From Amphiscolops sp. MND2022 (lineage: Eukaryota), in assembly GCA_964187785.1 (NCBI GenBank), contig OZ076410.1, positions 31,992,001 to 32,056,000 of the forward strand: 64,000 bases of DNA, in the 5' to 3' direction. This document shows, piece by piece, positions 1 to 61,462 of the stretch. A program made the position numbers and the translations under genes. Numbering within the stretch: position 1 is the stretch's first letter; every line of letters begins with the position of its first letter. Under the pieces are notes generated by a model. The model had not been told where the DNA came from. It saw only the letters and a list, made by a program, of their open reading frames with translations, and ran no database searches.

Positions 1-46
1 TGTCAAGCCTGAATCTAGTGCGTCAGCAAAACATAGATTTCATCGC

Positions 47-702
47 TTGGTTTTTGACCCGGAACGCCAAAAACTACCAGACTTCTTAGAAGAGTTACAG
101 GAAAGCGCCGAAAAAGCTTTCGGTGACATTGCATCACAAATGATAGAAAGGCTATTATATGCAAAAATGCCACCACACTTGAAACGTTCTATTAATCAAG
201 CCTATCTTGAGAATGGAACATATGAGCAAATAGTCCGACATCTCGAACGAGAGATGGAATTAAACGGACTTGAATCAGAAGACACTGGCGTTAAAACGCA
301 AATGGCAGTAATAAACAAAACAGCAGAAGACAAATCGACGCAGCAGAAAACTGCAACAACAAAAAAGAAGCAACAAACATCAAAAACTGTGCCAACAATA
401 CATTGCAAGATGATCAATGTCGTTATTGTAAAAACACAGGGCACAAGGCAGCAGACTGCGCTAAACTAGCAAAACGTCGTAAGTTGGAAGAAGACCCTGA
501 TGCCATACGCTGTGCGCATTGTAACGCACCAGGACATGAGGAACCAACATGCTACTTCGGAGCAAATATGGAAAATCGCCCCCCGAAGTGGACACTAACC
601 GAAGCACAGAAAAAGCTCATTGAACATTACAAAAACTCCAACAAACATATTAACCCGAAAGCACACCGACAACAACTTTCATCATCGAAGGATTTAAACT
701 AA
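47..702 (+). pseudogene. gag: Gypsy gag, C-terminal part, split by a 1-bp deletion near 393
   Basis: ORF 47-469 (capsid-like YAKMPPHLKRSINQAYLENGTYEQIV) and ORF 403-702 with CX2CX4HX4C knuckles CRYCKNTGHKAADC and CAHCNAPGHEEPTC. Adding one base at CCAACAATA joins them as ...KTVPNNTLQDDQCRYC. Confidence 0.85.
690..702 (+). promoter_or_regulatory. -1 ribosomal frameshift slippery site at the gag/pol junction
   Basis: G GAT TTA AAC TAA: the heptamer T TTA AAC (693-699) lies immediately before the gag stop. The -1 frame is open from 654 straight into pol. Confidence 0.8.
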
Positions 703-3700
703 TAAAGCCACGCCCTACAAAACCAGAGGAAAAAGATGACTGGCAGCATCCAACACCTCACCCAATAAAAACAAACACTTTCACACAACACACTGACTCT
801 CAGACTCCAGGAACTCAACAAAACGAACCAGAAGATGATTTGTATGAAATATACAGAGACGCCCCTGACAGATACATAACCACAAATCTTGAAATAAGTA
901 GCGAAAAAACACCAGAAAATCTGTTTGAATCTGAAAACGAAACCTCACCTCAAAATTTACCAGAACCTCTTCCGAAAAACAATTTTGAACCTCTCCAAAC
1001 ACAAGACTCACCTGTAGTACCAACCGAACCTGCATCAATACAAAAACAACCACTCATAGATGATGAAATTCAAAATCATCTTACAATTAATAAAGACACA
1101 GATATACCAATGCTTCTTTTATCAACCAACCTGACGCTAAAAAGCAAGCGACATGTGTATTATGTTCCAATGGATTTTGAAAAACTTACACTCGACGGTC
1201 TAATTGATACCGGAGCTCTCACGAGCGCAATATCGGAACAAGACCTAAATAAAATCAAACTTCTTGCACCAGAAGCAATAACAGACTCAGGTCCCGCACC
1301 CAATTTTCAAATAATGGTAGCAAACGGACAATTGGAAACACCAATCGGAACAGTCTGCCTAACATTCGAAGTGGCAGATTTTATGTTTAAAGAAAATTTC
1401 ATCGTCATGAAAATTTTACCGAATCCTCTAATCGGACTTTGTTTTTTAAAAAGGAACAATGCCATTTTCGACATCCGACAAGGAATATTGACTTTTCCAC
1501 ATTTATCAATGCAACTGAAACCAGAACACAGTCTTCCAACACGACAATCAACACCACTACTTGCAGAAGCAACATACACACTGCAACCAGGTGAAACAAT
1601 GCTCATCGCAAGCAGAATGCCGCATTTAATTGATCATGACGCAACAGGCATAGTAACGCCATCTATGCACCTTGAGGATCTTGACACACTTTTCCTAGTA
1701 TCTTCCCTCTGCACAGTCAACAATAACGCAGTCGGGTACCAGATCTGTAACTTCTCAGAACTACCATATACGATCACAACAGACACACATCTAGCCGACT
1801 TTCGAGTCTTAACTCCAGAACAATTGAAACACATCAAACCAATTAACCCTTCAATGCTAACATTCATCATGCACCAACATACTGAAGTTACGGACGTATA
1901 CCTTAATGAACTTCTAAAAGTAAACAACAAAGAAGACAAAACGGAACAATACTGGTTTCCAACACCGGAACAACCTGGAGACCCCACAACATACACACCC
2001 ATTCAGAAACGAATATTTGACGAACTAGTGGAACTTCAAACACTAGAAAAACTCAACCCACAAGACGACGAAAAATCACGCAAAACATTTCTTGACAATT
2101 TCGGTTGGAGTGACACAACACTCACACTGTTTGAACGACAGAAGGTAGAAGAACTGCTGGTTGAATTTCATGATATTTTTGCCAGACACCGGTTTGACAT
2201 CGGGACAAATAGAGAATTCAAAGTCAAACTCACACCAAATGATGACCGACCAGCATATAGTCAAAGTCTTCCAACTCCGATCAACCTAAAAGACGACATC
2301 ACGGTAGAACTTGCCCTACTTCACAAATATGGTATAATAACAACTCTACCGTTCTCTAAATACGCAAGTCCAATTTTTGCACAACGAAAACCTAATGGTC
2401 GTTTGCGACTCTTAGTCGATTTGCGCAAGATAAATAATCTCATCTCTGAAGACTACGTAAATAACAATCACCCAGTCAGTACACTATCCGATGCAGCCCA
2501 ACATATGGCCGGAAAGAAATTATTCTGTAAACTTGACTGTTCACAAGCGTACCACTGCCTTCAGATGGCAGATTACCAATCAATTCAGATGTTGGCCTTT
2601 AACTTCGCTAGCCGAACTTTTGCGTATCGACGATTAGCACAGGGCCTTAGTCGATCACTTTCAGCATTCTCTAGTTTCATACGAGAATACTTAGACACCC
2701 TCATCAAAGCAGACCAATGCGCCCAATACGTCGACGACATCGGAATCGCAGCAAACACAGTGTTACAACTGTGTATAAACATCCGAGCAGTCTTCGAATG
2801 TATACGGAACGCAGGACTGAAATTGTCAATGTCAAAGTGCCATTTTGGAGTCAAACAGGTCGATTTCCTGGGAAGAACGATCACACCCGAAGGAGTTTCT
2901 CCCCAAGTAGACAAAGTCAAAGATTTCTTAACGAAACTTAAATTCCCCAAATCCAAAAAAGGCCTTCAAAGGTATATTGGGTTTCTGAATTATTACAGAA
3001 ATTATATACCACGCCTTTCGGAACGACTCACCCCTTTCTTCAAACTACTGAAGGAAACCAACAAATTCTACATTTCTACCGAACTTACAAGCAATTTTGA
3101 ACAACTAAACAACCTTCGCCTTCAATCTTGCCAGATGACGCTCAAACAACCACTTAAAGACAAACAACTAATCGTCATGTCCGATGCCAGTTTCACAGCT
3201 GCAGGATATGCGATTATGATCGAAGACGACCCTCAACAAAAACTACAATCAAAACGCAAAACATACGCACCAATAGCTTTTGGCTCAAAAACTTTCAACC
3301 CAACCCAATTAAAAATGTCAATATATGCGAAGGAGTTTTTAGCCATCTTCTTTGCATTCTCAGAATTTGGGCACCTAATGTGGGGAAGTACCTTTCCTGT
3401 AATTGTCTTTACCGACAACCGTGCAGTTACGAGGTTCTTCCAAACAAAACTCATTCCTCCTGCACTATGGAATGCATGCGACTACGTCCTACAGTACAAT
3501 TTCGTTATAGCACATGTTGCAGGAGCAATGAACACAGCCGCAGATTTTCTGTCGCGAACAGAAATCAACCCGACAGAGAAACTCGAGATGAACATACGCA
3601 ACGACATACAAACAAAAGCCATCGAAGTTAATATTCAATCCTCTGGCATAACAGAAGAAGAACACATCTACCTCCTCCCCGAGGATGAAATTGATGAAAA

Positions 3701-5612
3701 AACACATTGGGAACAAAAAGATAATATTAGAAATCAAGCACAGACCGAAACTCACAATGAACCAGAAAATGAAATAACCGAATTACAAAACTTTCACAAA
3801 CCAACAGCTGGTACGACAAACTACCGCGAAGGACATTTCCGAGACAACGCAAAAATCCGACTCGAACAAAATAATGACCCAGTCCTTCGTAACCTCCGAG
3901 CAAAAATAGAAGGTGAGCCTTTTCATGAATCAGCGTTCACACAAGACAATCGCTATCAACATTACCTACAAAACATACCCCGCAACGAAATCCGCCAGGA
4001 CATTCTTGTACGAAAGTACTACAATGATATCGGACAAATCTCACACTACCAAATACTTCTACCAAAACAGCTTCTGGAAGAATTCCTACAGGCGTTGCAT
4101 GGACACAACGCAAACCACCCAGGAATAACAAAAATGATTCAAGAAGCACGCCAGAAATACTATTACCCATGCTTAGCAAAACACATCAAGAATTGGGTAC
4201 AAAACTACCAAATGTGCATTCAGAACAAAAGAATTAACAACGATTTACTAAAAACAGAACTTCTTAATTGCCCAGAATGGGACCTTGGTCCAGAAGACAT
4301 ACTTCAAATGGACATATTACCGAATCTTCCGCCTACTGGAGGTTTCGATAACATCATAACAGCAATTGATGTCTTTTCAAGATACTTATTTGCTTATCCA
4401 ACAACTCGGATCACAGCCCCTACAGTCGCAAGAGTCATTATGGACATTTTGTGCAAACACACATACTTACCAACAACCATAATAACTGATATGGGCACTC
4501 AATTCAACTCACAAATTACTCGAGAGGTAGCAGCAGTGCTTGGTGTTGAGCTAAAACATGCTTCGACAAAACATGCACAAACAATCGGCATGCTAGAACG
4601 CACTCATGCTACAGTAAAAGCACATTTGAAAGCAGCAACTGGTGAATTCCGTAATAATTGGCACAAATTTCTACCACTTGCTGTCCTAAACCACTACACA
4701 ACGTATCATGCCAGCTTAGGATGCGAACCCACCCGTGTGTTTCACGGCAAAATACCACATAACATACTAGACTACAAGCTAGGCTACAATCCTAATCCGC
4801 GGTATACTCCACAAACTGACATTGCAGAAGAAATACAACGACGAATGGAGATACTCAATGACCAAACCAAAAAGAACATCATGCAGTCATACTTGAAGTA
4901 TAAAGCATACTATGACCGCAAGCCAAAAGCGGCACCGCTTACAACAACAGACTATTGCTACATACTGAACCCAAAAGCAGACACGCAAGCAACGAAAATC
5001 CCATTCAGGGAATTCCGTTGGATCGGTCCCTACAAAGTCGAAAAAGTCCTACCTAACAATAACTACATTGTACGTAGGCTTGGGACAAACAAAACACAAT
5101 TACTACACCGACAACGTTTGAGAAAATTTACACCTAGCGCACCACTAGCAGATAATTTTGTCAAAGAAACAGACTGGCAAAAAGACGACAACATAATAGT
5201 AACACATGATGATTTGTACGCTCACACTTGGGATACAAATTTCGGTACAAACCCATTTGATACTGAACTCCCTGATACTGAACAGGATGACATACAAGAA
5301 TATGTCCCGATAAACCACCCACCCTCCCTCGAAATTTCAAAAAACAGTGGGGGATCCCCGGTAGAACAAACTACCGTTCCTAATGAAGAAACCCTACCCG
5401 AAAATACAGAAAACGAAATTGATGCAAATGATAATCAGCAAGATTTACAACCTAACACTACTATTGATGCAGAAAAATCCCCAGAAAATACAGATGAAAA
5501 TCAAGAAAATGATGAGGTTCAAAAAGAAAAAACCCCTACCAATACACGTGGTGAAAAATATAATTTACGACCTAACCCAAACCCCAATTTCTCAGATTCA
5601 TACAGATACTAA
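693..5612 (+). CDS. pol: Gypsy Pol polyprotein (aspartic protease, dUTPase-like spacer, RT, RNase H, integrase with GPY/F)
   Basis: LIDTGA protease, QYVDDIG RT, VMSDASF RNase H, HGHNANHPG...NYQMC zinc finger (first Cys is Tyr), QMDILP / ITDMGTQF / MLERTH DDE triad, WIGPYKV. The frame is uninterrupted (ORF track 840-5612). Confidence 0.95.
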   Translation, partial: FKLIKPRPTKPEEKDDWQHPTPHPIKTNTFTQHTDSQTPGTQQNEPEDDLYEIYRDAPDRYITTNLEISSEKTPENLFESENETSPQNLPEPLPKNNFEPLQTQDSPVVPTEPASIQKQPLIDDEIQNHLTINKDTDIPMLLLSTNLTLKSKRHVYYVPMDFEKLTLDGLIDTGALTSAISEQDLNKIKLLAPEAITDSGPAPNFQIMVANGQLETPIGTVCLTFEVADFMFKENFIVMKILPNPLIGLCFLKRNNAIFDIRQGILTFPHLSMQLKPEHSLPTRQSTPLLAEATYTLQPGETMLIASRMPHLIDHDATGIVTPSMHLEDLDTLFLVSSLCTVNNNAVGYQICNFSELPYTITTDTHLADFRVLTPEQLKHIKPINPSMLTFIMHQHTEVTDVYLNELLKVNNKEDKTEQYWFPTPEQPGDPTTYTPIQKRIFDELVELQTLEKLNPQDDEKSRKTFLDNFGWSDTTLTLFERQKVEELLVEFHDIFARHRFDIGTNREFKVKLTPNDDRPAYSQSLPTPINLKDDITVELALLHKYGIITTLPFSKYASPIFAQRKPNGRLRLLVDLRKINNLISEDYVNNNHPVSTLSDAAQHMAGKKLFCKLDCSQAYHCLQMADYQSIQMLAFNFASRTFAYRRLAQGLSRSLSAFSSFIREYLDTLIKADQCAQYVDDIGIAANTVLQLCINIRAVFECIRNAGLKLSMSKCHFGVKQVDFLGRTITPEGVSPQVDKVKDFLTKLKFPKSKKGLQRYIGFLNYYRNYIPRLSERLTPFFKLLKETNKFYISTELTSNFEQLNNLRLQSCQMTLKQPLKDKQLIVMSDASFTAAGYAIMIEDDPQQKLQSKRKTYAPIAFGSKTFNPTQLKMSIYAKEFLAIFFAFSEFGHLMWGSTFPVIVFTDNRAVTRFFQTKLIPPALWNACDYVLQYNFVIAHVAGAMNTAADFLSRTEINPTEKLEMNIRNDIQTKAIEVNIQSSGITEEEHIYLLPEDEIDEKTHWEQKDNIRNQAQTETHNEPENEITELQNFHKPTAGTTNYREGHFRDNAKIRLEQNNDPVLRNLRAKIEGEPFHESAFTQDNRYQHYLQNIPRNEIRQDILVRKYYNDIGQISHYQILLPKQLLEEFLQALHGHNANHPGITKMIQEARQKYYYPCLAKHIKNWVQNYQMCIQNKRINNDLLKTELLNCPEWDLGPEDILQMDILPNLPPTGGFDNIITAIDVFSRYLFAYPTTRITAPTVARVIMDILCKHTYLPTTIITDMGTQFNSQITREVAAVLGVELKHASTKHAQTIGMLERTHATVKAHLKAATGEFRNNWHKFLPLAVLNHYTTYHASLGCEPTRVFHGKIPHNILDYKLGYNPNPRYTPQTDIAEEIQRRMEILNDQTKKNIMQSYLKYKAYYDRKPKAAPLTTTDYCYILNPKADTQATKIPFREFRWIGPYKVEKVLPNNNYIVRRLGTNKTQLLHRQRLRKFTPSAPLADNFVKETDWQKDDNIIVTHDDLYAHTWDTNFGTNPFDTELPDTEQDDIQEYVPINHPPSLEISKNSGGSPVEQTTVPNEETLPENTENEIDANDNQQDLQPNTTIDAEKSPENTDENQENDEVQKEKTPTNTRGEKYNLRPNPNPNFSDSYRY

Positions 5613-5847
5613 AAACAGAAGACTACTGAGACTCAACTTTCTCTTACTAACATTCCGATTCAAAATTCAGTAAATAGAAATAAATACGGAAACAAAAGGT
5701 CTGAAGATAGAAGTAATTGACATCAGACATTAGTCTAAAAGAAACAAGTGTAATTGTTCTTAACTGGCGACCCTGACTTAGAAGTCAACTTTTTCTTCTT
5801 TCCGCTGGCATCAGAGGTAGTAGAATCTGGGAACAATGGACAGTCGA

Positions 5848-8800
5848 CTAGTCAACGAACCACAGGGCTGGGCTCTTGGGGCAGATTAATCTTCTCAGGA
5901 GATTTGCTTGGAGTGCCGCACTAGAACCCCGACTCGAATCGGACTTAGCTTTATCCTCAGTGGGCATCCAGGGTTTTCCCTCCTCCGGAGCGCTCTTGCT
6001 ATAATATGCCTCCAACGATGAGCGAATCTCAAGGCGTTTGAAATAGCTGGAAGACAGCAAATGCCAAACTGAGAATTTGCGCTTGAGTAGGAGTCCTGGC
6101 CCATGAGAAAGCAAATCGAAAATACGAGGCAGCGAATTTGGAGACAAGAATAAACTTTCAACCTTCTGAACAGAGGCGATAGTACACTGAAGACTCCTGA
6201 CGGCAGATGAGAATTCATTGGCATCGGATTTGAGTCCGGGCATGGGAACAATAAATAAAGGAGGAGAGATACTAGGGTTTCGCAAGGTTTCACAACAAAT
6301 GCGGAACAGACGAAACAATTCGATACGACTTTGTAGTTCGTAATGGCAAGAGAAGAAGCTCACCCATTCTTTGTTGTTACAAATCTTGTCAGATGGGAAT
6401 TTTGTAATCTGAGAACAATACTCGCTAACAACTACAGGCTTGATGTGAGGCGCGATCCATTTCTGTTGGACGAAATATCCACATAAAAGTTGAATAGAGT
6501 CCACATAATGGACTTCACTACCGCCCAACACCACAGCTTCATCGAATGATGATAATCCTCTGGAAAACGAAGAGGTGGCCAACTCGCTAGTCAGCAGAAT
6601 CTTTAGGAAACAGCGATAGAAGGAGATAACCTGGGCAATGAAACGTCTCGGAGTAGGAATCTTGCTGTCGTTGATGAGATTAGATAAGTCCCGATCCAGC
6701 AAGAACTCATCAACAGTTTTATAAGGCAGGGTTTCGTCGTCCATGTTTAGGGAAAGGTAACTATCCCAATCTGCAACATTCCCGAGGTGAGTGGTTGAGA
6801 AAATTGCTTGCAATTGAGAATACACGAAGACACAGAACTGGTTATACAAGCGGAAGCCCCCAGAGATTGACTCATGTACTTCTTTGAAGGCCGAGTTGTA
6901 TTGGCTGAGGATGTTCCGTGTGATGATCAGGCGAATGACAAAGACACGGTCTTTGATAATCAAGTCATCCATCCCACCTGGCTGAAAGGAAAATACAAAC
7001 GTTCAAACTATGATCAGAAGCCTGAGCCTAGGTGGAGGTTAAAGCTAAAAATACAAACCTCTTGCATATGAAACCGGTAGGCATGTACACGTCTGCTGTC
7101 ACAAAGATGAACAACTACTCGGTCCCAATTCGTGATCACATGATCCAGGATGACGACAGCTTGATTTAGATCATACTCCAGACTAGTGATTGCCTAAAGT
7201 AAGACAATGGCGGTGAAAAACAACCAATTAAGGATTGAGACACAAAGGCACGCGCAAAATATGATGAGTAAACATTATGCAATAATGAACAATCTTTGCA
7301 CGTGCAAAAATGAAGAAACCCAGTACAAATGCGAAACAACAGATATGATGACTCAGAATTCCTAGCGATGATGATTCAGACATAATGATCGAGATAAAAG
7401 TTTTTCTGAGAAGACAATTATGCCGCATCATGCTGCAAACTTCAAGAAGTATGACAAACAATTTACAATGGAAAAGCAAGAAAAAAGTCAAAAAGCATTA
7501 CATTTGCATACAAATTGGCAAAAAGAAACGAAGATGGTCAAAAATACAAAAATCACCAGGTTTAAAAGACTGAGGAAATTTTGGTGGAGAAACATGAAAT
7601 CCCCTGGAATCATTAAATTGGTGGTAGCCCGAGAGACAAATTGAAAAGTTTCATTTAGAAATTTAGAACATACAATAAAATACCAAGTGGAAACAAAAAT
7701 ACAAAGGATAGTAACCTTCTGGAAATCGGGCAAAGCTGTCAACCACGTGCTCCCAATGGCAGAGCGCAATCTCATTATCAGGAAATCCAGAACGCTGCGG
7801 AAATCAAAACGATCAAGAATCTGCACAGAAGGGACCAAGAGGGCACTCTCCAAGTCTTCCGCGTCAAATTTAGGAACTGAGCAGATCCGCTGGTGCTGAG
7901 GAAGGATCCGGGAGAGTGAATATGTAAAGCGTCGAGTGAAGCCTGTCACAAACTGCAGTTGAACATCTTTATCAAGTAGGGCCAAAACCCCACTAATTGG
8001 AGGGATGAAGACTGCGGGACAATTCGTCCGACTTGGGTATACTGCAATGCACATACTGTGTAGTGAGTTGCCCGCCCAGAAGTTCACATAAAGCTTTGTC
8101 TCAGTTGAACATGGCGTAATCCGAAGGGAATAACTCTTGGACGTCTCAATTGAATTAACACAATAGGAGAGCAGTTCACGGAACATGTGTGTCAGCATCC
8201 CCTAAACAGAATAAGCATTATATAATACGAAAGACAATGCAAGAATTGGCTAGTTGATGAAAGAAACTATACCCACCAAGACTCGATGTGGTTGCCAATC
8301 ATACTGTGATATAGGCTCTGTAGTTTTGGTTTCTTGGACCAGATCGTGCCAGAGTGCTATCAAGACATCTAATTTGCCTCCATGGATGAGTCCGGTCTTG
8401 AGGAGAGTGAGCTGTGAGTGCGTCTCTTTGTCTGGTTGTTTTGTGCCCGTCTCCTGTGGGGCTTCTAGTTGTCCAACACGGAGGTAATAATCGCCCAGCT
8501 TGGGTGCTATGGGATACTCTCGCTTTGCCCTCTCCTTTGCATATTTCAGAGCCATACCGGTTAACTCGTTACGATACTTGTCATATAGTGGCAACCCAGG
8601 AGTTTCCATCCTTATTCGGTGCTCTTTCACTAGGTGGGCATCAGTTCGGTAATGGCTCAAAATTTCTAGTGGTCCTTTTGTCATGAGGGAGAGCTCCACA
8701 AGACACACACGACAACGATATTTGTGAGGATACCGTGCGGCATCCGCCGGGGCTGTGACGAAGTACTTGAGGATGGGGTATTTGTGGTACATCCATCCTG

Positions 8801-10075
8801 CTAAAGTGTGTCTCGGTTTAGCACGTTTTCCTACTAGCTCATTCTTCTCTCGTTTTTTCTGCGCCTTGATGGGTTTTTCGTCAATGATAGCAGACCCGTC
8901 AGAAGATGAGTATTCCAAATCAGAATCGTTTGATGAATCTGTAGAACTGGGACTACGTTTTCTTTTCTGCTTTATCCGAGTCTTTTCTGACCCCTGCGGC
9001 CCATTGTATGACATTGTTGGTTCAAGCCTGGAAACAGGGTTTATCTTTTCGGGTGGCGTTCGCACCGCCTCCACACTGGTTGCAGCCTTCTTGGAGAGTA
9101 ACGTCGTTTGTTTCAAAACCTTTTTAGGCATTGTGCTAGCTACCGGAGTTGGGTGGTCACCAGATCCTGATAGAATGCTCTTGGCTCGGATCCGAGCACT
9201 GGCCTCCTCAGCTGCTTCTGATAAAAGTCGCTCTAATCTATTTTCCCCAGTATCCTTAGGACTTTCTTGGTTAGGTGGGAGCAAAGGAAATGGACTGACT
9301 TTGTCTTTGTCCTTGTTTTGAGGTTTATCTTTGTCGAGATTTGCCGTAGAAATGAAGCGTGTGAAAGGTGACCCTTTGTTGGCAACAGTCCCCTTCGTAG
9401 GAGTGTCTCTAGGTTTAACTTCACCTTTCTCGCTTGGGGAAGCAACGGGTGCTGATCCTGAAGAACATGGCAAAACTCCGCTCACAGGTGCGTTAACCAA
9501 AGGGGCAATCTCTTGTTGGACGCAGTCTTTAACGGGATCGCATGATTGCTGATTTGGCTGGTTGACTTCCTCTACAATTTCGACAAGTTCGGAGAAATTA
9601 TCTTCGATTAGAACTTGAGGAGTCAAATTAGGAGGGACGTGAAATTCAGCTAACGTTGATCTTTGAGAATGATCTGGCAACGAGACTGATTGCTGAATCA
9701 CAGGCCCTTTGCTGGTCCTCGTGAATCTTCGAATACTGACTTGCGGTTGAGATGGGGAAGAATCTGAAACAAATTGAACTTGAGCTGAAATCAGCAAACA
9801 GGAAGTTGATATTTCCGCCAAAAATTTGAAAACCGGAAGTTGACAAATCAGAAGATAGTCGACATAAATGCAAGTCTGGCCAACTCGCATTAAAAAATCC
9901 GTGATATCACAAAGAAAACAAAATACAGTCTGATTTTAATCAGAAGAACAATCAAAAATTCAAGCTTACCGCATGGTTCTGCAGTAGAAGATGAGCGAAG
10001 ACTCATCATCGACCTCGTCCTTTTCTTCGGGGGAGTTGTTTTCCGCCGGGAATTGGAAGATCGTGGTGCCACCAT
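5848..10075 (-). CDS. Predicted 5-exon antisense cargo gene, about 1120 aa; C2H2/BED-like zinc finger plus hAT-transposase-like body
   Basis: Exons 10075-9970, 9784-8277, 8201-7716, 7193-7059 and 6981-5848 are joined by GT-AG introns of 185, 75, 522 and 77 bp, all in compatible phase. The zinc finger is YRCRVC...LSHYRTDAH. Confidence 0.7.
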
Positions 10076-11160: not shown

Positions 11161-12297
11161 ATGTCAAGAAGCTCAAATCTCTTCACCATCGATGAGGATA
11201 TGCAATCCATCTCCACAAATTCCCCTGGATTAATTAACATATCCAGTGACTCTGGGTAAGAATTTGTAACCGAGCAGTCATACGTCGACCCAATTGACTT
11301 GAGATTCAGAGCTGGAGGACCACTACAGGATCCAATGTTGGCTTTTGTCAACGAGGATGCGGCTAGGCTGTTCGCGGTTAGTGAAACAGCGTCGAGAGAA
11401 GATTCTTTCATCGACGTTACCGGAACTGACATTGAAAGAGAAATACTGAGCACAATAACTGAAAACACTGAACTACCAGACTTTTCGCTTTCATCATTTG
11501 TCGAATCAGACGAGAGCAATGAAGACAATTTACTGTTAAACGCGGACTTTGCAAACGTACCAAGAAATAGTTATGGTAGGCCAGTAGTCACTGTTCCCCC
11601 GATGCGCGCTGGAGAAGTAATAACACAGATGCCTCCACTATCACAAAAAATGCCAACAACCCCTTGAGTGATCTCCATAGAAATGGTCCGATAAGACCAG
11701 TGCCAATAACTCCAATGGTGATACCCCAAGAAATTCCGACCGCTAATCAACCGCATCAAAATAACCGTACTAGAGGGATTCTACAAACGCCCTTAAGGGA
11801 CCAAAACTTTAACCCAAATACTCAACAGCACATGTCTACCTTGACTAGCCGTGGAGCGATCCCTTTCCAACATGCTGGAATAACCAACATACAACATCCC
11901 GGTAACCTAGATAACTCTGGATATTATTACAACTCCGCCGGGCAACTATATTTACCCTCAAGGTGTACACAACAACCCCGGGGAAGCCGAGACTCACCCT
12001 ACCCAAGCATACAGCAGTACGCAGGAACAGCCGATCCACAGAAGGATGCAGCTTAACCCGCCTGTAATGCCTCACGTTCAGGGAAACTGTCACTGGTGTG
12101 GAAAAACCTATGACGAAGTAGCCCTTGACGCCTTAGCAGCTTACACGATTGCCACCGAATACCCAGGTGAAACAGTGCGAGACCGGAACATCAGGTCACG
12201 AGCCTATCTAGATGGGTTCGAGGCTGCACTCATTTGCTTCAAAAATGCTGGCCTGTCACAGCCTAGAGCTTGTGCTGGACCCGCGGAGCAGCGATAG
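11161..12297 (+). pseudogene. Decayed sense cargo ORF (about 375 codons), acidic/Ser-Pro-Gln-rich with a C-terminal CHWC motif
   Basis: ATG at 11161 (MSRSSNLFTIDED), in-frame TAA at 11257, same frame continues to 11667. One-base shifts then link ORFs 11664-12056 and 12046-12297. Confidence 0.55.
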
Positions 12298-12944
12298 AGG
12301 CAAATGACTCGACCATCTAGCATCTTCTTAAATTAAAGCAAACTCTTTCATTCTTTAAACTTGTACTACGTGGATTTGTATGTAACTTTTACTTAACAGC
12401 CTTGTGTAAATTTGTTCATTATTTTAATCAATTGCAGCTGTGGAATAACATTTGTTTAACAATCGGCTTACTAAACATTGCAAGGTGTTAATAAAATTGA
12501 AGTGTGTGATTGACTAGTGTGATTTATGATGAAATGCATAAATTATGCGCGAATTGCGTAGTGCAGTGATATGTAAGGACTAATGTTTGAGCCAGTCTAC
12601 CACACCAAGCTTGAAGTATACTGCAGCATAATTACACTTTTCCAACTTGCTAACTACATCATTTTGGAGTATGACTCATTGGATTGAATGAACCACACGT
12701 GCAGTACTACGTCGGGATTAACATTAGCGTTAAATATGAGTCATACTACATGATGCCGTGACTTTTCATTAACGATGGAACGGAATAATGCAGTTAACAT
12801 ATTAACCAATCAAAATGCAGAAAGCATACGTCATGTAAGAATCTATTTATAACCATGATGCAAGAACCTATTTTTACATTGAACTGAACCCTATTTTTAG
12901 ATATTGCGTAAATATGATGTCAGCGTGACATTCAAAAAATGGGG

Positions 12945-13378
12945 TGTAATGTTACTAAAAATAGTTTGAAAAAGGGAGAGTAAGAACTCATAAAATTAAC
13001 TCAGTCAAGAAAAAACATTCATACTGATCAGACCTCCTTTTTCACCCTTCAACTTCTATTCTAATTTCAATGATTTATTTCTGTACACGAATTTACCAAC
13101 TCCACTTTGTCTTACTGAATCCAACAAACTAATTAAAATTCTTCTCTCCAAAACATCGTTTTCACCTAACTATGATGGGAAACAGAAAGAATAGGAGATC
13201 TAGACGGATTCAATCACCTTCGCTTGAGAGAGAACTGAGTGCATCAGAAATAGAGACATCACAAGGCCATCTAATTTAAACGAACTAAGAACGCCGATGC
13301 AACCTTTGAGCATACAAAACATCGATTTAAATGACTCTGTGGTCATAAATGAGAATCGCACACAAGAGGATTATCACA
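12945..13378 (+). repeat. 3' LTR (434 bp) of the large Gypsy element
   Basis: TGT...ACA termini, preceded by a polypurine tract. It ends exactly where similarity to the duplicated segment at 17057 begins. Confidence 0.75.
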
Positions 13379-13820
13379 CGTGCGAATGACTATTGAAACT
13401 GCGGACAGCGCAAATCATCAATAGTAAACATTCAGAAAGGAGCCGTTTGCAAGATAGCTGTGCAAGAAACGCGACGCTCAAAATAATCAAGTCCTAATGA
13501 AACACAAAAAGCAAAATAGAAATAGATTTTTGAAGCAATTTTTTTTGGTAATCAAAATATAGATGAAACTTCCAGGGTATAGTCCATTTTTACTTCGTTT
13601 GAAGAGTGTTCTTCTACTTCTTCAGACAAATGTTACACACCTGCAACTGAAGTCAAGCTGCTTAAAGTCAAAACAATTCCCTTTATTCAATGACATTTTG
13701 CCAATTACCAGTCCGACTCAGGTATACAGAACGTCTGAGATGCAGTATCATGAAGAAATATAAGTATCCCCCGCAAGAATTATTGTTTAGTCACGTTTTC
13801 AAGGATCTGAGTGTAGATCC

Positions 13821-49684: not shown

Positions 49685-52600
49685 TTGAATAGTTGAATAG
49701 TTTAATTTATTGACGATTATAAATTACATTACTTCTATGAAACATAAATACATTGAAGATATATTATCGTCAAAAGGACGAAGAAAGAGCTTTTCAGCTC
49801 GTCAATTAAGTCTTCGCCCCGAGAACCAACATGCTTTTTTAAGAGAAAAAAAATATATAGGAGCTGTGTAGGAGAATTTTGAAAATTTCAAAATCATTTG
49901 AAAGTCAAAAATAAACATTGAACAAGTCTCTGTTGTTCGAAACATAATTATGAGCAATACCGTTTATGAGGTTTTTTGTTGCATTTTCACTTAAGTTTTT
50001 AATATTTGATGGGATAAGATCGAGCGTTTTCAACCAATTGTACGTTTTCACAATTGAATTTTTTAACGATCGCCGTTTAGTTTCTGTTCTGCTGAAAGTT
50101 ATTTTCAGTAAACCTCTTTTTCTTCTGCGGGTGTTTATATCGGGCGGTATGAAACTACCGGCCACAAAGTCAAACGGCGAATTACCCCTCAATTGTCGAA
50201 ATAATTCACATACGAGTTCAGCAATATAGGTTTCATGAATTGTCAGTATGTTATGTGACGCATACACATTTTCTAGTGAGTCTGTTTGCTTCTTAAAGAA
50301 AATTGCCCGTAATATCCTTCGTTGCGCTTTTTCGATAGGATCCAAGTTCGTTTTTGCAGTTGCACCATAATTCATTAGGCCATATTTGATTATTGGTTTA
50401 GCTATGGTTTTGTAAAACAGTAAGAGACATCTCGCGGGAAATATGTGCCTTACCTTATACATCAAACCACAAAATTTATTCAGTTTCTTTGTTACGTATT
50501 TAATATGCTCTTTGAAATTGAGTTTCTCGTCAATTTTGACACCAAGATATTTACAATGATCTTTTAGTGAAATTCTCTGGCCAAAAGCTTCTTCGCTAAG
50601 AGGTCGAGCACGACCGAAACAAACATACTCACATTTTCCTATATTGACAGTTAGTTTATTCTCATTAAACCAGTTCCTAAGATTTTGGATATCATTGCAA
50701 ATTTCCTCAGATGTATTTTGGCCAATATTGTAGACGGTTGTATCATCTGCGAATAATGTTATCATGCTCAGATTGCATTCCTTTGGTAAGTCGTTAATGT
50801 AAACGAGAAATAGAAATGGTCCGAGAACAGAACCTTGTGGAACACCAGTGTTTATACTTAGAACATCCGATTTTTTTCCATCCTGTAATACATATTGTTT
50901 CCTATTTGAAAGATAATTTTTGATGATGTTGAAAATTGGCTCTCTGAAGCCGTATCTATATAGCTTTTGCAAGAGGATAGAATGATCAAGTGTATCGAAT
51001 GCCTTTTCTAAATCAATAAAGCAAGCGCTGCCAGAGCGCCGTTCATCAATTGCATTCCTTATATAATCCGTTAATTCAGCTACCGCGTGATTACAACTCC
51101 TTTTACTGCGAAATCCAAATTGATTTTTCGAATATAAATTATATTTGGTAAAATACTTATTCATTTGTTTATGAAGTATTTTTTCAATTATTTTGCCTAT
51201 TGGACTCAAGAGGCTTATGGGACGATAGTTCTCGGGATTTGTTTTATCGCCTTTTTTATACAGTGAGATTACTTTTGCCACCTTCAGACAGTCAGGAAAT
51301 GTTTCCTCCTCTATGCATTTGTTCACAATTTTGCATATATATGGCTCGATAACAGGGGAACATAGTTTTAATATTTCATTGCTTATGCCTGAGGGACCAG
51401 TGCTCCGTTTGTTTTTGAGCTTCTTTAGAATAGCTGTTATTTCATCAATATTTGTTTTATTCAGAACCATACTATTCTCCACAGTTTTTATATTGCTTGT
51501 GAAGTCAGTGTGAGGAATGTTTGAAGAGAGAGTTTGACCAATGGTTGCAAAATGTTTATTCATTTTATTTGCATCGAGGGATCCGTGGACTTGTTGCTTT
51601 TGAACATTTTTATATTTTAATTTCTTATAAATCGTTTTGGATGAAGGATTAGAGCCTAGTTCTTTGAAGTTTTGCTCGCGTTTAGCGTTCCGTATTAGTC
51701 CTCTAATCTCATTTCTCAAGTTCTTTAAGGCTTGACGATTTTGTTCACTAGGATCCTTAATCCATTTTTGAAACAAAAGGTTCCGTTTTTGAATGCGGTT
51801 TTTAATCTTATTATTTATCCAAGGTGAATGTTTCTTTTCACTAGGTGGTTTTTCTGGCGCAAAGCGATCAAGACAGTTAATTATGCAGTCAATTATTTTA
51901 GTTACATAAGTATCAACGTCTGCATTTTCATTGATTTGGCGTAGTTTCTGATCCAGAAGGAAAAGGAAATTAAGAATTTTATTTTTCTTGATATGATTGA
52001 GATTTCTAACAAGTGTATAATTATTATCCGAACTCCTTTTATTTTGTATTCCTAGCCATGATAAATCAGTCTCAATCGCGTAGTGGTCACTGATTGTTAT
52101 TTTCACTGTTTTTGTATTGATCTCGTTGCTGGAAATAATGTGATCTAAGCAAGTTGCCGTCGTACTTGTGACACGTGTTGGTTCGGAGTTTTGTATTTTG
52201 AACCCGTAGGCTGCTAAAAGATTTGTGTAGTTTATCGATTCAGAGTTTTCAATAAGTGTATTTATATTAAAATCGCCGAATATGATGCAATCATTTTTCT
52301 GTGACCTTAAGAAACTAAGAAGCGATTCCATTAATTCAAGAAACTTACTGTAAAGTACGGAATCTGGCCTATAGACAACACAAAAGTTTTTCTTATTGCC
52401 TTTGCTAAACGTGAAAGTTCCTATGAGACATTCAAGTTCACTTTCGTATTCCAGTACCTCGTACGCAATTTCATTTTTAGCGTAGAAAGCTACACCTCCA
52501 CGGATCCCTGTAATTCTAGGTTTCGATTCTATCTCTTGATAACCATTTATATTATAATGAGTTAGTGGGTCGCTTTCTGTGAGCCATGTTTCGGTTAGAA

Positions 52601-52857
52601 AAATCAATTCAGGTAAATATTCCTCCACCTGTAATTCCAATTCTTCAAAGTTATATCTTAGTGAACGTATATTTAAACCAAAAAGAAAAGTCTGGAAAGC
52701 ATGTTGTTGGTTCTCAGTAGATGTTAGATTCATTTAAAGAGTTGATGTTGGCGGTGTTACCGAAATTCCAAAAGCAACATTTGGTATACCCCGCAACCAA
52801 AATTAAACGTCTACTTTCCAAATCATTCATTATGCAATAATTTAAATTGGACACTTA
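49685..52857 (-). mobile_element. Non-LTR retrotransposon (LINE), L2/CR1 group
   Basis: EN-RT ORF, 3' UTR with AATAAA and a short tandem tail (CTATTCAA)2 ending at 49685. The 5' boundary is unclear and interrupted by the BEL element. Confidence 0.85.
49905..52733 (-). CDS. LINE ORF2: APE-type endonuclease plus reverse transcriptase, 942 aa, intact
   Basis: GLNIRSL, FLTETWL, FGDFNIN, CLDHII, SDHY (APE); ENYRPISLL, QFGFR, DLEKAFD, GVPQGSVLGPFLFLVYINDL, LFADDT, KYLGV (RT). Confidence 0.95.
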   Translation of the reverse strand: MNLTSTENQQHAFQTFLFGLNIRSLRYNFEELELQVEEYLPELIFLTETWLTESDPLTHYNINGYQEIESKPRITGIRGGVAFYAKNEIAYEVLEYESELECLIGTFTFSKGNKKNFCVVYRPDSVLYSKFLELMESLLSFLRSQKNDCIIFGDFNINTLIENSESINYTNLLAAYGFKIQNSEPTRVTSTTATCLDHIISSNEINTKTVKITISDHYAIETDLSWLGIQNKRSSDNNYTLVRNLNHIKKNKILNFLFLLDQKLRQINENADVDTYVTKIIDCIINCLDRFAPEKPPSEKKHSPWINNKIKNRIQKRNLLFQKWIKDPSEQNRQALKNLRNEIRGLIRNAKREQNFKELGSNPSSKTIYKKLKYKNVQKQQVHGSLDANKMNKHFATIGQTLSSNIPHTDFTSNIKTVENSMVLNKTNIDEITAILKKLKNKRSTGPSGISNEILKLCSPVIEPYICKIVNKCIEEETFPDCLKVAKVISLYKKGDKTNPENYRPISLLSPIGKIIEKILHKQMNKYFTKYNLYSKNQFGFRSKRSCNHAVAELTDYIRNAIDERRSGSACFIDLEKAFDTLDHSILLQKLYRYGFREPIFNIIKNYLSNRKQYVLQDGKKSDVLSINTGVPQGSVLGPFLFLVYINDLPKECNLSMITLFADDTTVYNIGQNTSEEICNDIQNLRNWFNENKLTVNIGKCEYVCFGRARPLSEEAFGQRISLKDHCKYLGVKIDEKLNFKEHIKYVTKKLNKFCGLMYKVRHIFPARCLLLFYKTIAKPIIKYGLMNYGATAKTNLDPIEKAQRRILRAIFFKKQTDSLENVYASHNILTIHETYIAELVCELFRQLRGNSPFDFVAGSFIPPDINTRRRKRGLLKITFSRTETKRRSLKNSIVKTYNWLKTLDLIPSNIKNLSENATKNLINGIAHNYVSNNRDLFNVYF

Positions 52858-52903
52858 TGTTGCAGAGCAAATATGGTTGAATTAAAACAAACAAAAATCA
52901 AGT

Positions 52904-52974
52904 GACCATAGCACGGTCGGTAGAGTATGGGGCTCGGAATTTGAAGGTTACCGGTTCGATTCCCGAAACCGTCA
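52904..52974 (+). promoter_or_regulatory. tRNA-derived Pol III promoter (A and B boxes) in the BEL LTR; second copy 61678-61748
   Basis: A-box-like TAGCACGGTCGG, B box GGTTCGATTCC (52953-52963) at tRNA-like spacing, TTTTT at 53008-53012. The stems pair poorly. Confidence 0.7.
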
Positions 52975-53195
52975 AATATTTGCTACTTCTGAAAATAGTA
53001 AAATATATTTTTCAAATATCATTCAAATAATTTGCTATCTCGAAACTTTAATTTGTTTAATTATATTTGTAAACAATATTGATCTTTTGCAAGTTGTTTC
53101 GATTTATTCACTGATGTCTTTGAATGTTTAAAATATTGCTAACAAAAAACTCTTTGCAAACGGACTGTATTCACCCGAAGGCTTACAGTTTAACA

Positions 53196-53212
53196 TGGTG
53201 GCCATAGAGAGG
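53196..53212 (+). promoter_or_regulatory. Primer binding site of the BEL element
   Basis: TGGTGGCC... directly after the 5' LTR, complementary to a tRNA ending GGCCACCA. Confidence 0.85.
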
Positions 53213-54021
53213 CATTTTTGGTTATGTCATACCATTTATTTTTGTTTGCTGATTCTTCACTGAGTTAATTCGTACCATTGTGAAATCGAATTGATGACTT
53301 GATAAATCTGCATTACCCGCGTCCCGTCATTCTTGTCTCTTATTTTGGACTTTATGAGGTACGTATACGCGTATATTTATACATTTCACGGAATAATGAG
53401 ATGAATCTGTAGAGACTTGAAATCAACTTGGAATTGATCGCTCACACAAGTTGCCTCAGTAGCGGATACAGCTCGCGTTTGGTACAGCTTTTAGAGAGTC
53501 ACGCTCTTTGCAAAGCTGGTTGTTAAACCACAAGGATTTCAAATAATTGAATATCATAATGCGGACGTTCCAGTTTTATCACAGCTTTATCAACAAATCG
53601 ACTGGCAATCGGTGGTCAACTTAGTCGTCCACGGATCATTCCAGGCAAATATCAAAGACTAATGACAACTGGATTTTACTCAAACTTAGTTATTGCCCGA
53701 AGTCATACCCAAAGCCCTAGTGGGAGCCCCCGAATCCCCGAATGAGCAACCTCCCCCAAAGCTCCAATTGTCCCTGAAAGCCCTGACGCTGCCAACGAAG
53801 CATTCTGGCCGTGAGTAACAATAAAACAGACCTTTAAAATCTCTTGAAATTTTATTCGAGATAGCAAGTTCTTGAGAAAACAAAAGTTTGTCCCGAAAAT
53901 TCAATGTCTTTCTTCTAATGTGAAAAAATCGTTGAAGTTGTGATCCGTGTAGAGAAAAAATTATTGATAAATTCAATTTGAGCAAAGTATTGTTTAAAGA
54001 AAAAAGAAGAGAAAAACACGC

Positions 54022-54630
54022 ATGGTTTTCATATTGGCTGCTAGTTCTTTGCACCATGCAATAAAAACGTTGACTCCTGATGAAAAAGAACATTTCGATG
54101 ACAAAATTTATACCATCCCGGGCCTAAGTCTTAATCCGTTGACGAAAAATCCGAAGAAAATTGTCCAAAATTTACTTTCGAAAGATTTGAAAGATAAAAA
54201 AGACATTGTGATTTGGCATGATGTTTTGAACAATAGTATTTCGAAACATGATAGCAACAATTTCCGTGCGTTATCAGTGTTGGATCTAATTAAAACATTG
54301 AAAAGTCTTCAAGACAAGCTTTGTGCTCTAGTGTATTGCCAACGTTACCGCACCCCGCACATTTTCGAAGAATTGAAAGTTTTGCAAACTGATCATAATA
54401 TCAAAGTGTTCAGTATCGTCAAAGATTTTATATCCGTGAAAAAACAAAAGGATCCCGAGATTCTTAAACAATTCAAGGCGTTGCATCAGAGCCCAGAGCT
54501 TGAACTGAAGAATTTGGATTTTGTTCTTCGTAAAGAGAATGATCTCAGTAAAATAACTGATAAAAGCCGACCCAAACGGCCAAGCAAGCGTGCCCGGAAC
54601 GCTGCTAAGAGAGCCGCTGCCTCCTTTTAG
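54022..54630 (+). CDS. Extra 202-aa ORF in the BEL leader; SGNH/GDSL-hydrolase-like with a basic C-terminal tail
   Basis: FILAASSL (block I-like), IPGLS (II), IVIWHDVLNNSI (III), KALHQ (V), tail RPKRPSKRARNAAKR. Confidence 0.6.
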   Translation: MVFILAASSLHHAIKTLTPDEKEHFDDKIYTIPGLSLNPLTKNPKKIVQNLLSKDLKDKKDIVIWHDVLNNSISKHDSNNFRALSVLDLIKTLKSLQDKLCALVYCQRYRTPHIFEELKVLQTDHNIKVFSIVKDFISVKKQKDPEILKQFKALHQSPELELKNLDFVLRKENDLSKITDKSRPKRPSKRARNAAKRAAASF

Positions 54631-55056
54631 ACTCAGTTGGCTACCCCCCCCCCCGATTCTTCCAGCTGTCGAGACAGTGTCCGAACTTCACTGATCGGTT
54701 GAAGTTTCTTCAGCTCTTCCTCCTTCTTTCAGAGTTGTGTCCAGTCTTTACTGACTGGTTGATACTCTGAAAGATCGTTTCGTCCCTCAGCCGCACCACC
54801 GTCAACTGAGACCGCGTTTCGTCGACGCGACTTTGAGTTTATCGTGTTCCGTCCTCGTAGCCTGTGACTACTTTTAACTTAAAACAAAAAAATCGCCAGT
54901 TTCTTTGTAGAAGCACTGTACAAACACAGTGTTGTCACCGATAAACACCGTTCTTTCTTCTACCGAACTTTTTCTCGAACTGTGTCCAAACTTAATTGTT
55001 TGGTTGACGTCTGAAAAAGTACAAACGCCCACCGATCCTCAAATTTGGCTACGGTA

Positions 55057-58000
55057 ATGTCTGACCCCGTTCACGAAAAGGTGCAAAAGTTGTATGACAG
55101 TCGCGCGAAAGCCGAAGCCGACTTGAACAGATATCAAAGGGACGTGACAGAAGCAGTAAACAATGCCGACAGACGCGTTCGCGTCGAACGGTTGGTCACT
55201 TCTTGCGAAGAGGCTATGACAAAAGCTTTCGCTAAGAACGAACAGCTACTCGAGCTTGCCAAGAAAACCAACGACCCGGCAACTGTCACAGCGGACTTAG
55301 AAAAATGGTTGAACGTCACGAGCATACAAAATGATGAAATTTTGAGAAGCGCAAGGGAATATATCGACCAATGTCCCAAAACAGATAATTCTTCACAAAC
55401 TTCAGTAAAAGCTACCACCGTGAAGACCAAGTCTAGCAAAAATTCAAGCAGCAAAGCGTCGAAAACTTCAAGTCAGCGCCAACGAGACTTGCTTATTGCC
55501 AAACACAAGCGAGAAGAAGTTGAACGGCAAAACGAAGCTGCTTTACGATTAGCTAAGCAAAAGCAAGAGCTCGAGCTTGAACAACTGCAAGAAGAGAACC
55601 GCAAACGACTTGCAGAAGCGCATCTAGTTGAACTTGAACTTCAGGAAGACCCATCTGAAGCTAACGAAGATGCTCATGAGATTCTTTCGCGGTTGAGCAG
55701 AACAACAGATGCTAGCGAAACGCGCCGAGTTAGTGACTGGGTTAACAACTCGCCAATCGTTACCACGACTCAACATGAGACAGTAACAGCAGTGACTGCA
55801 AGTCTAGCGACTTCTGTCGCAAACACTACCGTTTCCATCCCATCTCACCCACCTCTGGTTAATGTCTCTCAGCCGACTTTCACACCAGGTGATCCCAACG
55901 AAACAAACGTGGCAGTACAACTACCAACAACTACCGTTCCATCAATGAGTTTAAATCACACTCCTGCGGTACAAACTCAGACTCCTCCATTGACAGCGCA
56001 AAACTTGGGGAATATCGGACCTTCAACATCAGCTGTCATAGTACAACAACAAGTTCAACCGACAATCATCCCGACCCAAACTGGAAGTTTCAATGCGCAA
56101 GTTTTACCGCCACAAACGACAGCACGGATGCCTACGTTCACAATGCCGGTGAACCACATCCTCCCGAACTTGTCCGCATGGACCTTCCCGAACCCGACTG
56201 TTACCACCGCACCGATTGTAACAACAATTCCGCCCCCGACACAGCCGACGGCACCTACTATCATGCCGTTTGCTCACGCGCCAACCTATGCCGCTCCAAC
56301 CGTACCCGTTACCGCTGGTGGAACTGTTTATTATGTACCCCCAGCAACCGTTACCACGCCAATTGTGTACAGTACAGTAGCACATCCGACGACTTCTCTT
56401 AGTCCAACAGCCGCTACCTTTGTGGCAGCCGGAACGTCAACGACTATGCAACCAAGTACAACCGGATTCACGATACAAGATCTTGCCTTGTTGTTAGCAT
56501 CAACCAAGAAAGACCATTTGCCGGAGTGGAAACTAGCACAATATAATGGTGACCCGATACAATGGCATGAATGGTTTGGCCAGTTCAAAAGTGCCATAGA
56601 CTCAGCCCCACTCACCGATGACGTCAAGTTAACATACCTCAAGACTCTTGTTACAGGTAAAGCAAAAACCGCTATCGCTGAGTTTGCTTACTGCGGAGCA
56701 ATGTATGGAGACGCCCTAAAGACACTAGAACGGAAGTTTGGACAGCCACAGGCTGTAGTAACTGCTTATCTGGATAAGTTAGCAAACTTTCCACCCGTGA
56801 AGATGCACAACAGTGAGAGCATCATCAGTTACTCAGCAACAATCTGTTCTCTAGTTGGGGTCTTCCGCTCTCTAAACTACGTCCAAGACCTGTCAAGCGC
56901 ATCATTGCTTGGACAAGCCGTTCAAAAGCTTCCGCCAAACATGAAAGAAGCATGGTCAATGCACACGGTGAAGCGGACATTGGACAGGCCAACACTGATC
57001 GATTTCAACGATTGGCTCAAAGATAAGGCGGAAGCGCATGAGCGCATGAAGTCTGCCTCAACCAAGCCGAAAACCGAAGACAATACCACTACTGCAACAA
57101 AGACTAAAACTGTCTCCAAAGTTTTTGCCTCGACAGCCTCGTCTAGCCAACAAAGTTCGAACTCGAAGAGTAAAGTGGAACAACCGCCAAACTGTGTCGC
57201 CTGTAAAGACAAACACCCGTTGTGGAGATGTCCAGTTTTCAGAAAAAAGACACCCACGGAGAGAGCAAGAATTGTGGCAGACAATAAGCTCTGCTTTTCA
57301 TGCTTCAACCAAAATCACACGTTTCGCCAGTGCCCGCAACCCCGCAAGTGTACGAAAGATGGATGCGGGAGTTCACACAACACTTTCTTGCACGGAGCCG
57401 ACAGAATATTTGCCAAGAAAGCCACTAATGTGAACAAGGACAAAACTGAAACATCTGGTTGTATTGGGACGTCAATGAACAACGAAAGATCAAACGAGAG
57501 CTCAGGCATGCCCTCCGTTGCCGATGTTAAAGGCCTCTTACAAGTAACGGAAGTTGAACTTCACGCGAATGGCAAAAGTGAAAAAGTCTTAGCACTGTGT
57601 GATTCTGCCTGTAGCCATTCCTGGATCTCAGCAAATCTGGCAACGAAGTTGAACGTTCATGGCACCCCGACCAAGCTTACTGTCCATGGCATAAATTCCA
57701 ACCAAGTCGTAGACACGCAACTGGTGGAGCTTAAGTTGACACCCGTTCATTCGGGTGGCTCTTGCTCTCCCTTTGTTGTTAAACCGTACGTCAGGGAAGA
57801 CCTCAAAGTCGGAACTGACACCATCGATGTCGAACTTTTGAAAACAAAGTACCCCCATTTGCAACCAATCTCTTTGAAAAAGTACAGCTACGGCGATGTT
57901 GAAATGATCCTAGGTCAGGATGTTTTCCACTCGATCCGCCCGCTGGAGTTTTTTGATTCCGACCGCAAAAATGCTCCAGTTGCCGTTCGCTTACCGTTGG

Positions 58001-61000: not shown

Positions 61001-61462
61001 GTAGAGCAGAGTCTCAATTCCCGTCCACTAGTACCCGTTAGCGCCGACGCTACGGATTTGGACGCGTTGACACCTAACCACTTCCTGTTGGGAACCGCGG
61101 GTTCCACAATGCCATCTCACCAAAGAGCCGACGTAGACCACAAAAAACGCTACGCACATGCACAAGCGTACTCAGATGCAATTTGGGACCGTTGGTTAAG
61201 AGATTACGTTCCGTCGCTTAACCGCCGTTCAAAGTGGTCAACCCAACCAGATCGAGATCTCAAGATCGGAGACCTTGTCTGGATTGTGGAAACTACGAGT
61301 CCACGAGGACATTTCCCACTTGCACGTGTGGTTAAACTGAACTACGGTACTGACGCAATCGCTCGTTCGGCGGAACTGAAAACCGCAACAGGAAACCTCG
61401 TTCGACCCGTTGTCAAACTCGCACCCGTTCTCCCGTCCCCCGATTCCCCCAATCTTACTTAA
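55057..61462 (+). pseudogene. BEL/Pao gag-pol polyprotein interrupted by one frameshift at 58819-58822
   Basis: Gag core (WHEWFGQF), three Cys/His knuckles, LCDSACSHS protease, FYMDDYL RT, MFGDSS RNase H, HETHCH...CVTC, IDYFGP / SDNGTNF / VWER integrase. Removing one C of CCCC fuses ORFs 55045-58902 and 58856-61462. Confidence 0.92.

Follow-up and report, generated by a model that had tools for sequence, protein, structure and literature searches.

Features of the locus

The window, by which we mean the whole 64,000-nucleotide stretch of Amphiscolops sp. MND2022 DNA that was analyzed, opens inside a young Ty3/Gypsy LTR retrotransposon. This element carries, in antisense to pol, a five-exon gene at 5848-10009 on the minus strand with a predicted product of approximately 1,100 amino acids, which we call the cargo (Table 1). 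The initial annotation had placed the cargo between 5848 and 8800; the peptides that it quoted were all found on the minus strand within that span, in exons 2, 3, and 5, but the gene continued past 8800 to 10009. The carrier pol had the Pfam domain order PR-RT-RH-IN, as in Gypsy, and there was no Pfam chromodomain match in its integrase. The 5' LTR and the primer-binding site, which begins TGG, lay upstream of the window start (locus L001).

Table 1. Positions of the carrier element and the cargo gene in the window
Feature	Position	Strand	Evidence or remark
gag, 3' part	1..702	+	split over two frames in the window copy
pol (protease, RT, RNase H, integrase)	654..5612	+	Pfam RVT_1, RT_RNaseH, Integrase_H2C2, and rve above cut-off
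Cargo exon 5: helical insertion domain and C-terminal hAT helices	5848..6981	-	
Cargo exon 4: 45 amino acids, helical	7059..7193	-	AG/GT retained in 35/37 and 36/37 copies
Cargo exon 3: putative RNase H-like core	7716..8201	-	predicted as a helix, three strands, and a second helix
Cargo exon 2: Ser/Pro/Lys-rich low-complexity stretch, then zinc finger and lead-in helices	8277..9784	-	open frame, composition
CCHH zinc finger YRCRVC...HYRTDAH, end of exon 2	8637..8720	-	
Cargo exon 1 (predicted)	9970..10009	-	ATG at 10009 or 10006; least certain exon
Second accessory ORF	11161..12297	+ (sense)	broken in the window copy; divergent from the cargo start
3' LTR	12254..13378	+	TG...CA ends; 99.4% identical to the 5' LTR over 1,126 bp
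Target-site duplication of the carrier, 5 bp	13379..13383	+	same 5 bp precede the 5' LTR

Both the antisense cargo gene and the second, sense ORF lie between pol and the 3' LTR. The second ORF encoded 385-388 amino acids in five sister copies and 352-368 in farther lineages, and its conserved C-terminal CxxCG domain extends into the 3' LTR. It gave no match in Pfam, and it tracked the backbone (82-96% DNA identity) rather than the cargo allele. No clear polypurine tract was found at 12236-12253, upstream of the 3' LTR; the same stretch is coding sequence of the second accessory ORF. Each LTR of the window copy measured 1,126 bp, about 360 bp less than the 1,487-1,506 bp seen in sister copies, and similar pol backbones carried at least two LTR types that were about 70% identical to each other. 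The source genome (G000) is 1.07 Gb in size.

Exon structure of the cargo gene

The cargo introns are of the GT..AG form. Exon 3 encodes YSLRITPCSTETKLYVNFW, and SFDEAVVLGG...VVSEY...ELFRLFRICCETL is encoded in exon 5. Among the divergent copies L051-L090, compared at aligned exon ends, the splice dinucleotides were present at the same codon positions in 34/35, 34/36, 34/35, 35/37, 36/37, and 36/38 copies. The proteins of these copies were mostly just 50-70% identical, yet their splice sites were conserved, which indicated that the gene model is not due to chance. The exon 2 donor GT was present in 34/35 copies, and the N-terminal part of this exon could not be aligned between alleles. For exon 1, the donor GT at 9969 was kept in 11 of 13 aligned copies; 7 of 20 copies did not align there. 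Over approximately its last 20 codons the window copy departs from the family reading frame, and it does not have the basic tail that most of its close sisters carry.

The number of introns varied among lineages. In five loci of distant lineages (L173-L177) the gene was free of introns and consisted of one frame of 863-904 amino acids, which aligned collinearly with exon 5 (HHalign 97.6%) and exon 3 (89.2%). The lineages at L161-L172 had about two introns. Around window position 6900, 34 of 38 divergent copies (L051-L090) showed a donor-like GTTAG or GTAAG and an extra intron after residue 27 of exon 5, and this intron was missing from the subfamily of the window. An antisense gene has a transcript of its own; by the logic of LTR replication, splicing does not remove its introns from the genomic RNA, and they survive reverse transcription.

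Relationship to hAT5-type transposases

Profile comparisons supported a relationship of the cargo to hAT5-type DNA transposases, and the closest kin found appeared to be a DDE-intact hAT5-type family (L182-L205). This family was sought under the hAT hypothesis and not blind, by a search that was seeded with a hAT motif and that led from one locus through its frame to 27 matches. The members are DNA transposons with SFDE, MDG, CxxH, and (V)ESGFS motifs. In 11/11 copies examined, the ends were CAGGG...CCCTG, with target-site duplications of 5 bp (seven copies) or 6 bp (four copies); L183 was omitted, its 5' end being rearranged. According to PMC9004415, 5-bp duplications, unusual among hATs, mark hAT5. 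We set the label hAT5 by this description, which the duplications of 5-6 bp match. The initial annotation had named an 8-bp duplication as a mark of an ordinary hAT, and this criterion was set aside, as the duplications of the donor type are 5-6 bp long.

In a HMMER scan of 2,356 ORFs from 71 loci, a 211-row cargo profile gave E values of 1.1e-7 to 6.2e-7 with six hAT5-type ORFs and of 0.0012 with a further, N-terminal ORF, and the best ORF from 50 ordinary-hAT loci and the best reversed ORF reached E 0.13 and 0.56, respectively. The best E values were 1.3e-5 with a profile from source-genome rows alone and 0.0034 with one from spliced near and far lineages alone. With HHalign, the C-terminal part was aligned with the hAT5-type family at 94.4% (E 8.8e-8, score 67 versus 16.5 or less in 20 shuffles) and the region from the finger to strand 1 at 32.8% (E 4.6e-4, score 37.4 versus 20.6 shuffled). 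Comparison with an independent full-length hAT5-type protein, L206, gave 86% (E 5.2e-6, score 57.9 versus 22.1 in eight shuffles). L206 (L206:494-2584, JAMJIN010000304.1) is a hAT5-type transposase of 697 amino acids with its DDE intact; it comes from a 2.6-kb contig that is filed under a bacterial MAG but is probably eukaryotic carry-over. The significant alignment spanned the zinc finger to strand 1 and the helical insertion to the helix before the third acid; the cargo and the hAT5-type transposases (L182-L205; L206) are collinear in the finger, the lead-in helices, strand 1, and the insertion helices up to the pre-E3 helix. In the middle of the RNase H core, the HHalign alignment was not significant (score reached by 3 of 30 shuffles; 3 of 4 blocks in another comparison).

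The hAT origin proposed by the initial annotation was therefore borne out by the deep family profile (HMMER E 1.1e-7; HHalign 94%). The suggested kinship with ZNF862 and with TTF or BED proteins gave way to hAT5 as the closest relative found; the cargo profile reached just 0.1% in HHalign with the Ac/hobo-type hATs of the same genome. The hAT5-type profile itself matched Ac-type hATs weakly (E 0.0045). Window-family exon alignments by themselves showed no significant match to the hAT5 profile, and shallow exon profiles showed none to Ac/hobo-type hATs. The Pfam search that had been proposed as a check detected no significant family in the window exons, 17 family proteins, or 36 full-length members, so that the hAT link was visible to the deep family profile only. 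Pfam was also blank for the DDE-intact hAT5-type proteins, which indicated that Pfam is blind to the hAT5-type group. A search of the genome for DUF4371 gave no match anywhere, controls included.

Structure-based searches provided leads. When the relative P0195, which has the finger and the core in one frame, was submitted to ESM Atlas, clusters were obtained at 0.90-0.95, and a hAT-related family or clan was common to all ten of the best family-bearing matches; since one in three shuffled proteins likewise scored ten of ten, the result is a lead. Exon 5 gave just helical-repeat leads below 0.9, and no longer homologues of this exon turned up in a search for them. In the fold check proposed by the initial annotation, low-confidence AlphaFold models of exons 3 and 5 (pLDDT 48-50) brought up Hermes chains only at Z 2.9-3.3 and ranks 11-37, in the right register (model residues 1-82 on Hermes 149-243). 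Sequence searches of the PDB found no hAT; a PPR match (E 5e-8), whose target was a designed repeat protein, was discounted as a probable helical-repeat match.

Zinc finger and catalytic residues

The four CCHH ligands of the finger were kept in 98/105, 98/107, 101/111, and 103/114 rows, respectively (>90%), and HHalign aligned this finger with that of the hAT5-type transposase. There was no Pfam support for a BED or TTF subtype; the hAT5-type finger showed a sub-threshold zf-C2H2_jaz match (E 0.61).

The catalytic acids are probably missing from the cargo, as the initial annotation had held: in columns whose mapping is weakly supported for the first two Asp (D1 anchored by the N-terminal alignment, D2 and also E3 at positions that we infer), Asp occurred in 1/44 rows at D1, with Glu in five, and in 1/42 rows at D2, where the following Gly was retained in 30/42. 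In the window copy, the D1 and D2 equivalents are Thr (8117-8115 and 7946-7944, minus strand), and the E3 equivalent is likely Pro (6264-6262, minus strand). The mapped E3 was Pro in 32/40 rows in the ungapped register; three residues past it D or E stood in 24/39 rows, and an alternative register would place E3 on a column with D or E. No CxxH was found at the mapped place in cargo rows. Neither was there a hAT5-type terminal repeat in the carrier element, and none of the 25 longest inverted repeats flanked the cargo gene. Judged from these alignments, the cargo protein has likely lost DNA cutting. Unlike hAT5 elements, the cargo lacks termini, a target-site duplication of its own, and DDE and CxxH at the mapped columns; its introns number up to five, its N-terminus is long and disordered, and it moves inside an LTR element.

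Distribution of the cargo and selection on it

Among 80 loci picked by the cargo, pol was adjacent and antisense in 77, sense in 0, and missing within 10 kb in 3, in agreement with the capture by an LTR retrotransposon that the initial annotation had suggested. These loci comprised 40 copies chosen from 110 matches, with open frames favoured, and 40 further loci from searches with divergent database relatives (20 of 150 and 20 of 150 matches). The RT identity of cargo-bearing lineages to the window ranged from 98% down to 68%, and the capture of the cargo is therefore old. First-look searches returned 5,119-6,433 cargo candidates each, which are candidates and not copy numbers. Remote relatives (P0158-P0231) were present in database records, and the best identity of P0231 in the source genome was just 37%, which suggested that the family likely reaches other genomes. 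Metagenome and viral scans found neither relatives nor donors of the cargo. Several of P0158-P0231 appeared to stop at one common exon boundary, and copies with internal tandem duplications of the cargo region were seen in the source genome at C12:54208000-54237999 and C13:45945000-45964999.

The cargo is kept intact by purifying selection. When exons 3-5 of 29 copies were compared with the window, dN/dS was 0.15-0.32 in all eight copies with measurable dS (0.09-0.61). The seven closest copies gave values of about 1-2 or undefined, on very few changes, and in the other 14 synonymous sites were saturated (pS 0.78-0.86, pN 0.18-0.20) and dN/dS was unmeasurable. The cargo dS was likewise saturated in 38 of 39 further copies, with a pol dS of 0.04-0.67. 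The finger region evolved most slowly (median dN 0.18 versus 0.28), and the disordered N-terminus changed most.

Exchange of cargo alleles between backbones

The cargo is an exchanged cassette, and its alleles are older than the backbones that carry them. One element, L088, was 98-99% identical to the window in gag, PR, RT, IN, and LTR and 96% in the second ORF, versus 65-72% in the cargo exons, and its exon 2 N-terminus could not be aligned with that of the window; its LTR pair is 99.8% identical, which marks a young element. In a pair comparison in which 23 of 60 loci passed the completeness filter, 21 of 78 near-family pairs had RT DNA at least 95% identical, and the cargo DNA of 14 of these 21 was less than 75% identical. 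One RT cluster held at least five cargo clusters, and several alleles resided on young elements with LTR pairs of 97-99.8% identity. AU tests on 15 rows, for clades that were named after the trees had been seen, showed that the RT data reject three cargo clades (p 7e-61, 3e-9, and 0.006) and that the cargo data reject two RT clades (p 5e-38 and 2e-5). LTR types assorted independently of cargo alleles. Selection could be the driver of the swapping, which could also be partly neutral.

Possible function of the cargo

We tentatively favour, with a confidence a little short of even, the interpretation that the cargo is a spliced antisense accessory gene, related to hAT5 and likely non-cutting, whose protein would bind DNA of the element and sustain its transcription against host silencing. 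In this view an ancestral carrier received a hAT5 element in the interval from pol to the 3' LTR; the insert would then have been stripped of its termini and catalytic acids and yet retained. The conserved finger end may dock on a target common to the family, and the variable helical and disordered parts may contact host chromatin or silencing factors; rare cargo versions would be favoured, and template switching would move old alleles onto whichever gag-pol backbone is spreading. A finger that evolves slowest and an N-terminus that evolves fastest fit a constant DNA target with variable protein-facing surfaces. VANC-type systems have target-motif arrays. In the cassette, no allele-specific repeated motif stood out in a k-mer look, nor was a hAT5 subterminal motif enriched in the element, and both results count against a regulatory role. 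The independence of LTR type from allele argues against strict allele-to-target co-evolution, and since a transposase activates its own termini, a regulatory cargo must have acquired a new target. It is possible, but on balance doubtful, that a hAT was domesticated here by a retrotransposon and not by the host, as an exchangeable specificity cassette whose ancient alleles are swapped under frequency-dependent selection in an arms race with silencing or rivals, and that this aided expansion to thousands of candidate loci.

The coexistence of many alleles would also be expected if each allele repressed competitors, either sister families or hAT5, and spared its own element, like incompatibility groups. 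The five or more cargo clusters in one RT cluster, the 14 of 21 RT-similar pairs with divergent cargo DNA, the synonymous saturation between alleles, and the presence of several alleles on young elements agree with such exclusion. However, no allele-linked self signature was found, and the protein is probably too diverged from resident hAT5 transposases for mixed-multimer poisoning; we regard this explanation as unlikely, with some weight of its own. The retained DNA-binding finger and transpososome-type scaffold, together with an integrase devoid of a Pfam chromodomain match, could instead point to a tether, a non-cutting transposase that would hold on to the integrase complex as well as to target DNA or chromatin and so steer insertion to safe sites. 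An integrase partner would not be expected to have alleles only 50-70% identical on integrases mostly >90% identical, swapped without the integrase, and the 3' flanks of 6/6 copies had no sequence in common, which makes a tether quite unlikely.

A role in the RNA or particle (packaging, export, or a piRNA decoy), with the finger binding RNA, would suit the long disordered Ser/Pro/Lys-rich N-terminus, the basic tail, and the zf-C2H2_jaz match of the related hAT5 finger, but this match is not significant and the ancestor is a DNA-binding enzyme, so we consider it improbable. The chance that the cargo is simply a nested hAT transposon of the usual kind, or a relic that the element carries along neutrally, appears next to negligible. 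Real hAT5-type elements are present in the genome, and dN/dS of the seven closest copies was near or above 1, on very few changes; however, the position and orientation were fixed in 77/80 loci, dN/dS was otherwise 0.15-0.32, and frames stayed open and splice sites conserved despite synonymous saturation. The initial annotation had tied a nested hAT to an intact DDE triad with terminal inverted repeats, and what was found instead was Asp in a single row at each of the two mapped columns and no hAT5-type terminus in the element.

Comparison with known systems

The plant Gypsy elements Retand, Grande, and RIRE2 (TRP28, PF04195) resemble the carrier in having a conserved antisense ORF in the pol-3' LTR interval (PMC11963269; PMC7264820). 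In these two papers, the Retand-type ORF is proposed to be a DNA-binding regulator, and the origin of such ORFs is called unknown, with no similarity to other TEs. The cargo gave no PF04195 match in Pfam at E up to 10 or 1, and unlike these ORFs it has a traceable donor class, is a spliced gene, and resides in an animal rather than a plant host. Such accessory ORFs in Gypsy elements have long been puzzling, with both origin and function called unknown in reviews, and this one would be traced to a specific DNA-transposase class.

VANC of VANDAL and TnpA of Spm can be likened to the cargo in that each is an accessory protein that binds DNA and activates the element encoding it. A transposase is able to switch on the element it belongs to, and TnpA arose from such an enzyme (bioRxiv 10.64898/2026.08.24.746577). 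As described in PMC13547354, VANC and TnpA reside in DNA transposons, and their source is the element's own transposase or a host gene. In contrast, the cargo would be a class II enzyme at work for a class I element, and the analysis detected no array of target motifs for it. If the favoured regulatory interpretation holds, the idea of transposases as ready-made regulators, so far based on plants and on host genes, would also cover their selfish re-use by a different transposon.

ZBED genes are host-domesticated, hAT-derived DNA-binding genes. Like the cargo, the host-domesticated hATs (CGGBP1, ZBED, DAYSLEEPER) are transposase-derived DNA-binding proteins under purifying selection. CGGBP1 derives from hAT19 (PMC9004415). 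Unlike these fixed host loci, the cargo is multi-copy and mobile, with swapped alleles. Bdelloid rotifer LTR elements have captured ORF3s (DEDDy, GDSL) that occur across TE classes and, like the cargo, are non-env accessory genes in animal LTR elements (PMC5408684). Unlike the cargo, their enzyme motifs are intact, and the word 'transposase' is absent from the main text of PMC5408684. The literature covered, which took in few subscription papers and Repbase reports, yielded no description of an LTR retrotransposon with an accessory gene derived from a hAT, and an earlier account is possible; the nearest parallels were the Retand-type antisense ORFs, TnpA and VANC, and the host-domesticated hATs.

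With its probable hAT5 ancestry, the present case would document how a gene passed from a class II to a class I element and then remained under purifying selection for a long time while its introns changed and catalysis was lost. The swapped alleles are a natural experiment, since elements of one genome that are identical in gag, pol, and LTR allow each allele to be assessed for expression, chromatin state, and insertion sites.

Two further elements were noted in the window. An open 942-amino-acid endonuclease and RT ORF at 49905-52733 (minus strand) was labelled as that of a LINE by reading its translation. At 52857-61930 (plus strand) lies an LTR element that contains two long ORFs and whose 300-bp repeats are identical; its motifs are BEL/Pao-like.
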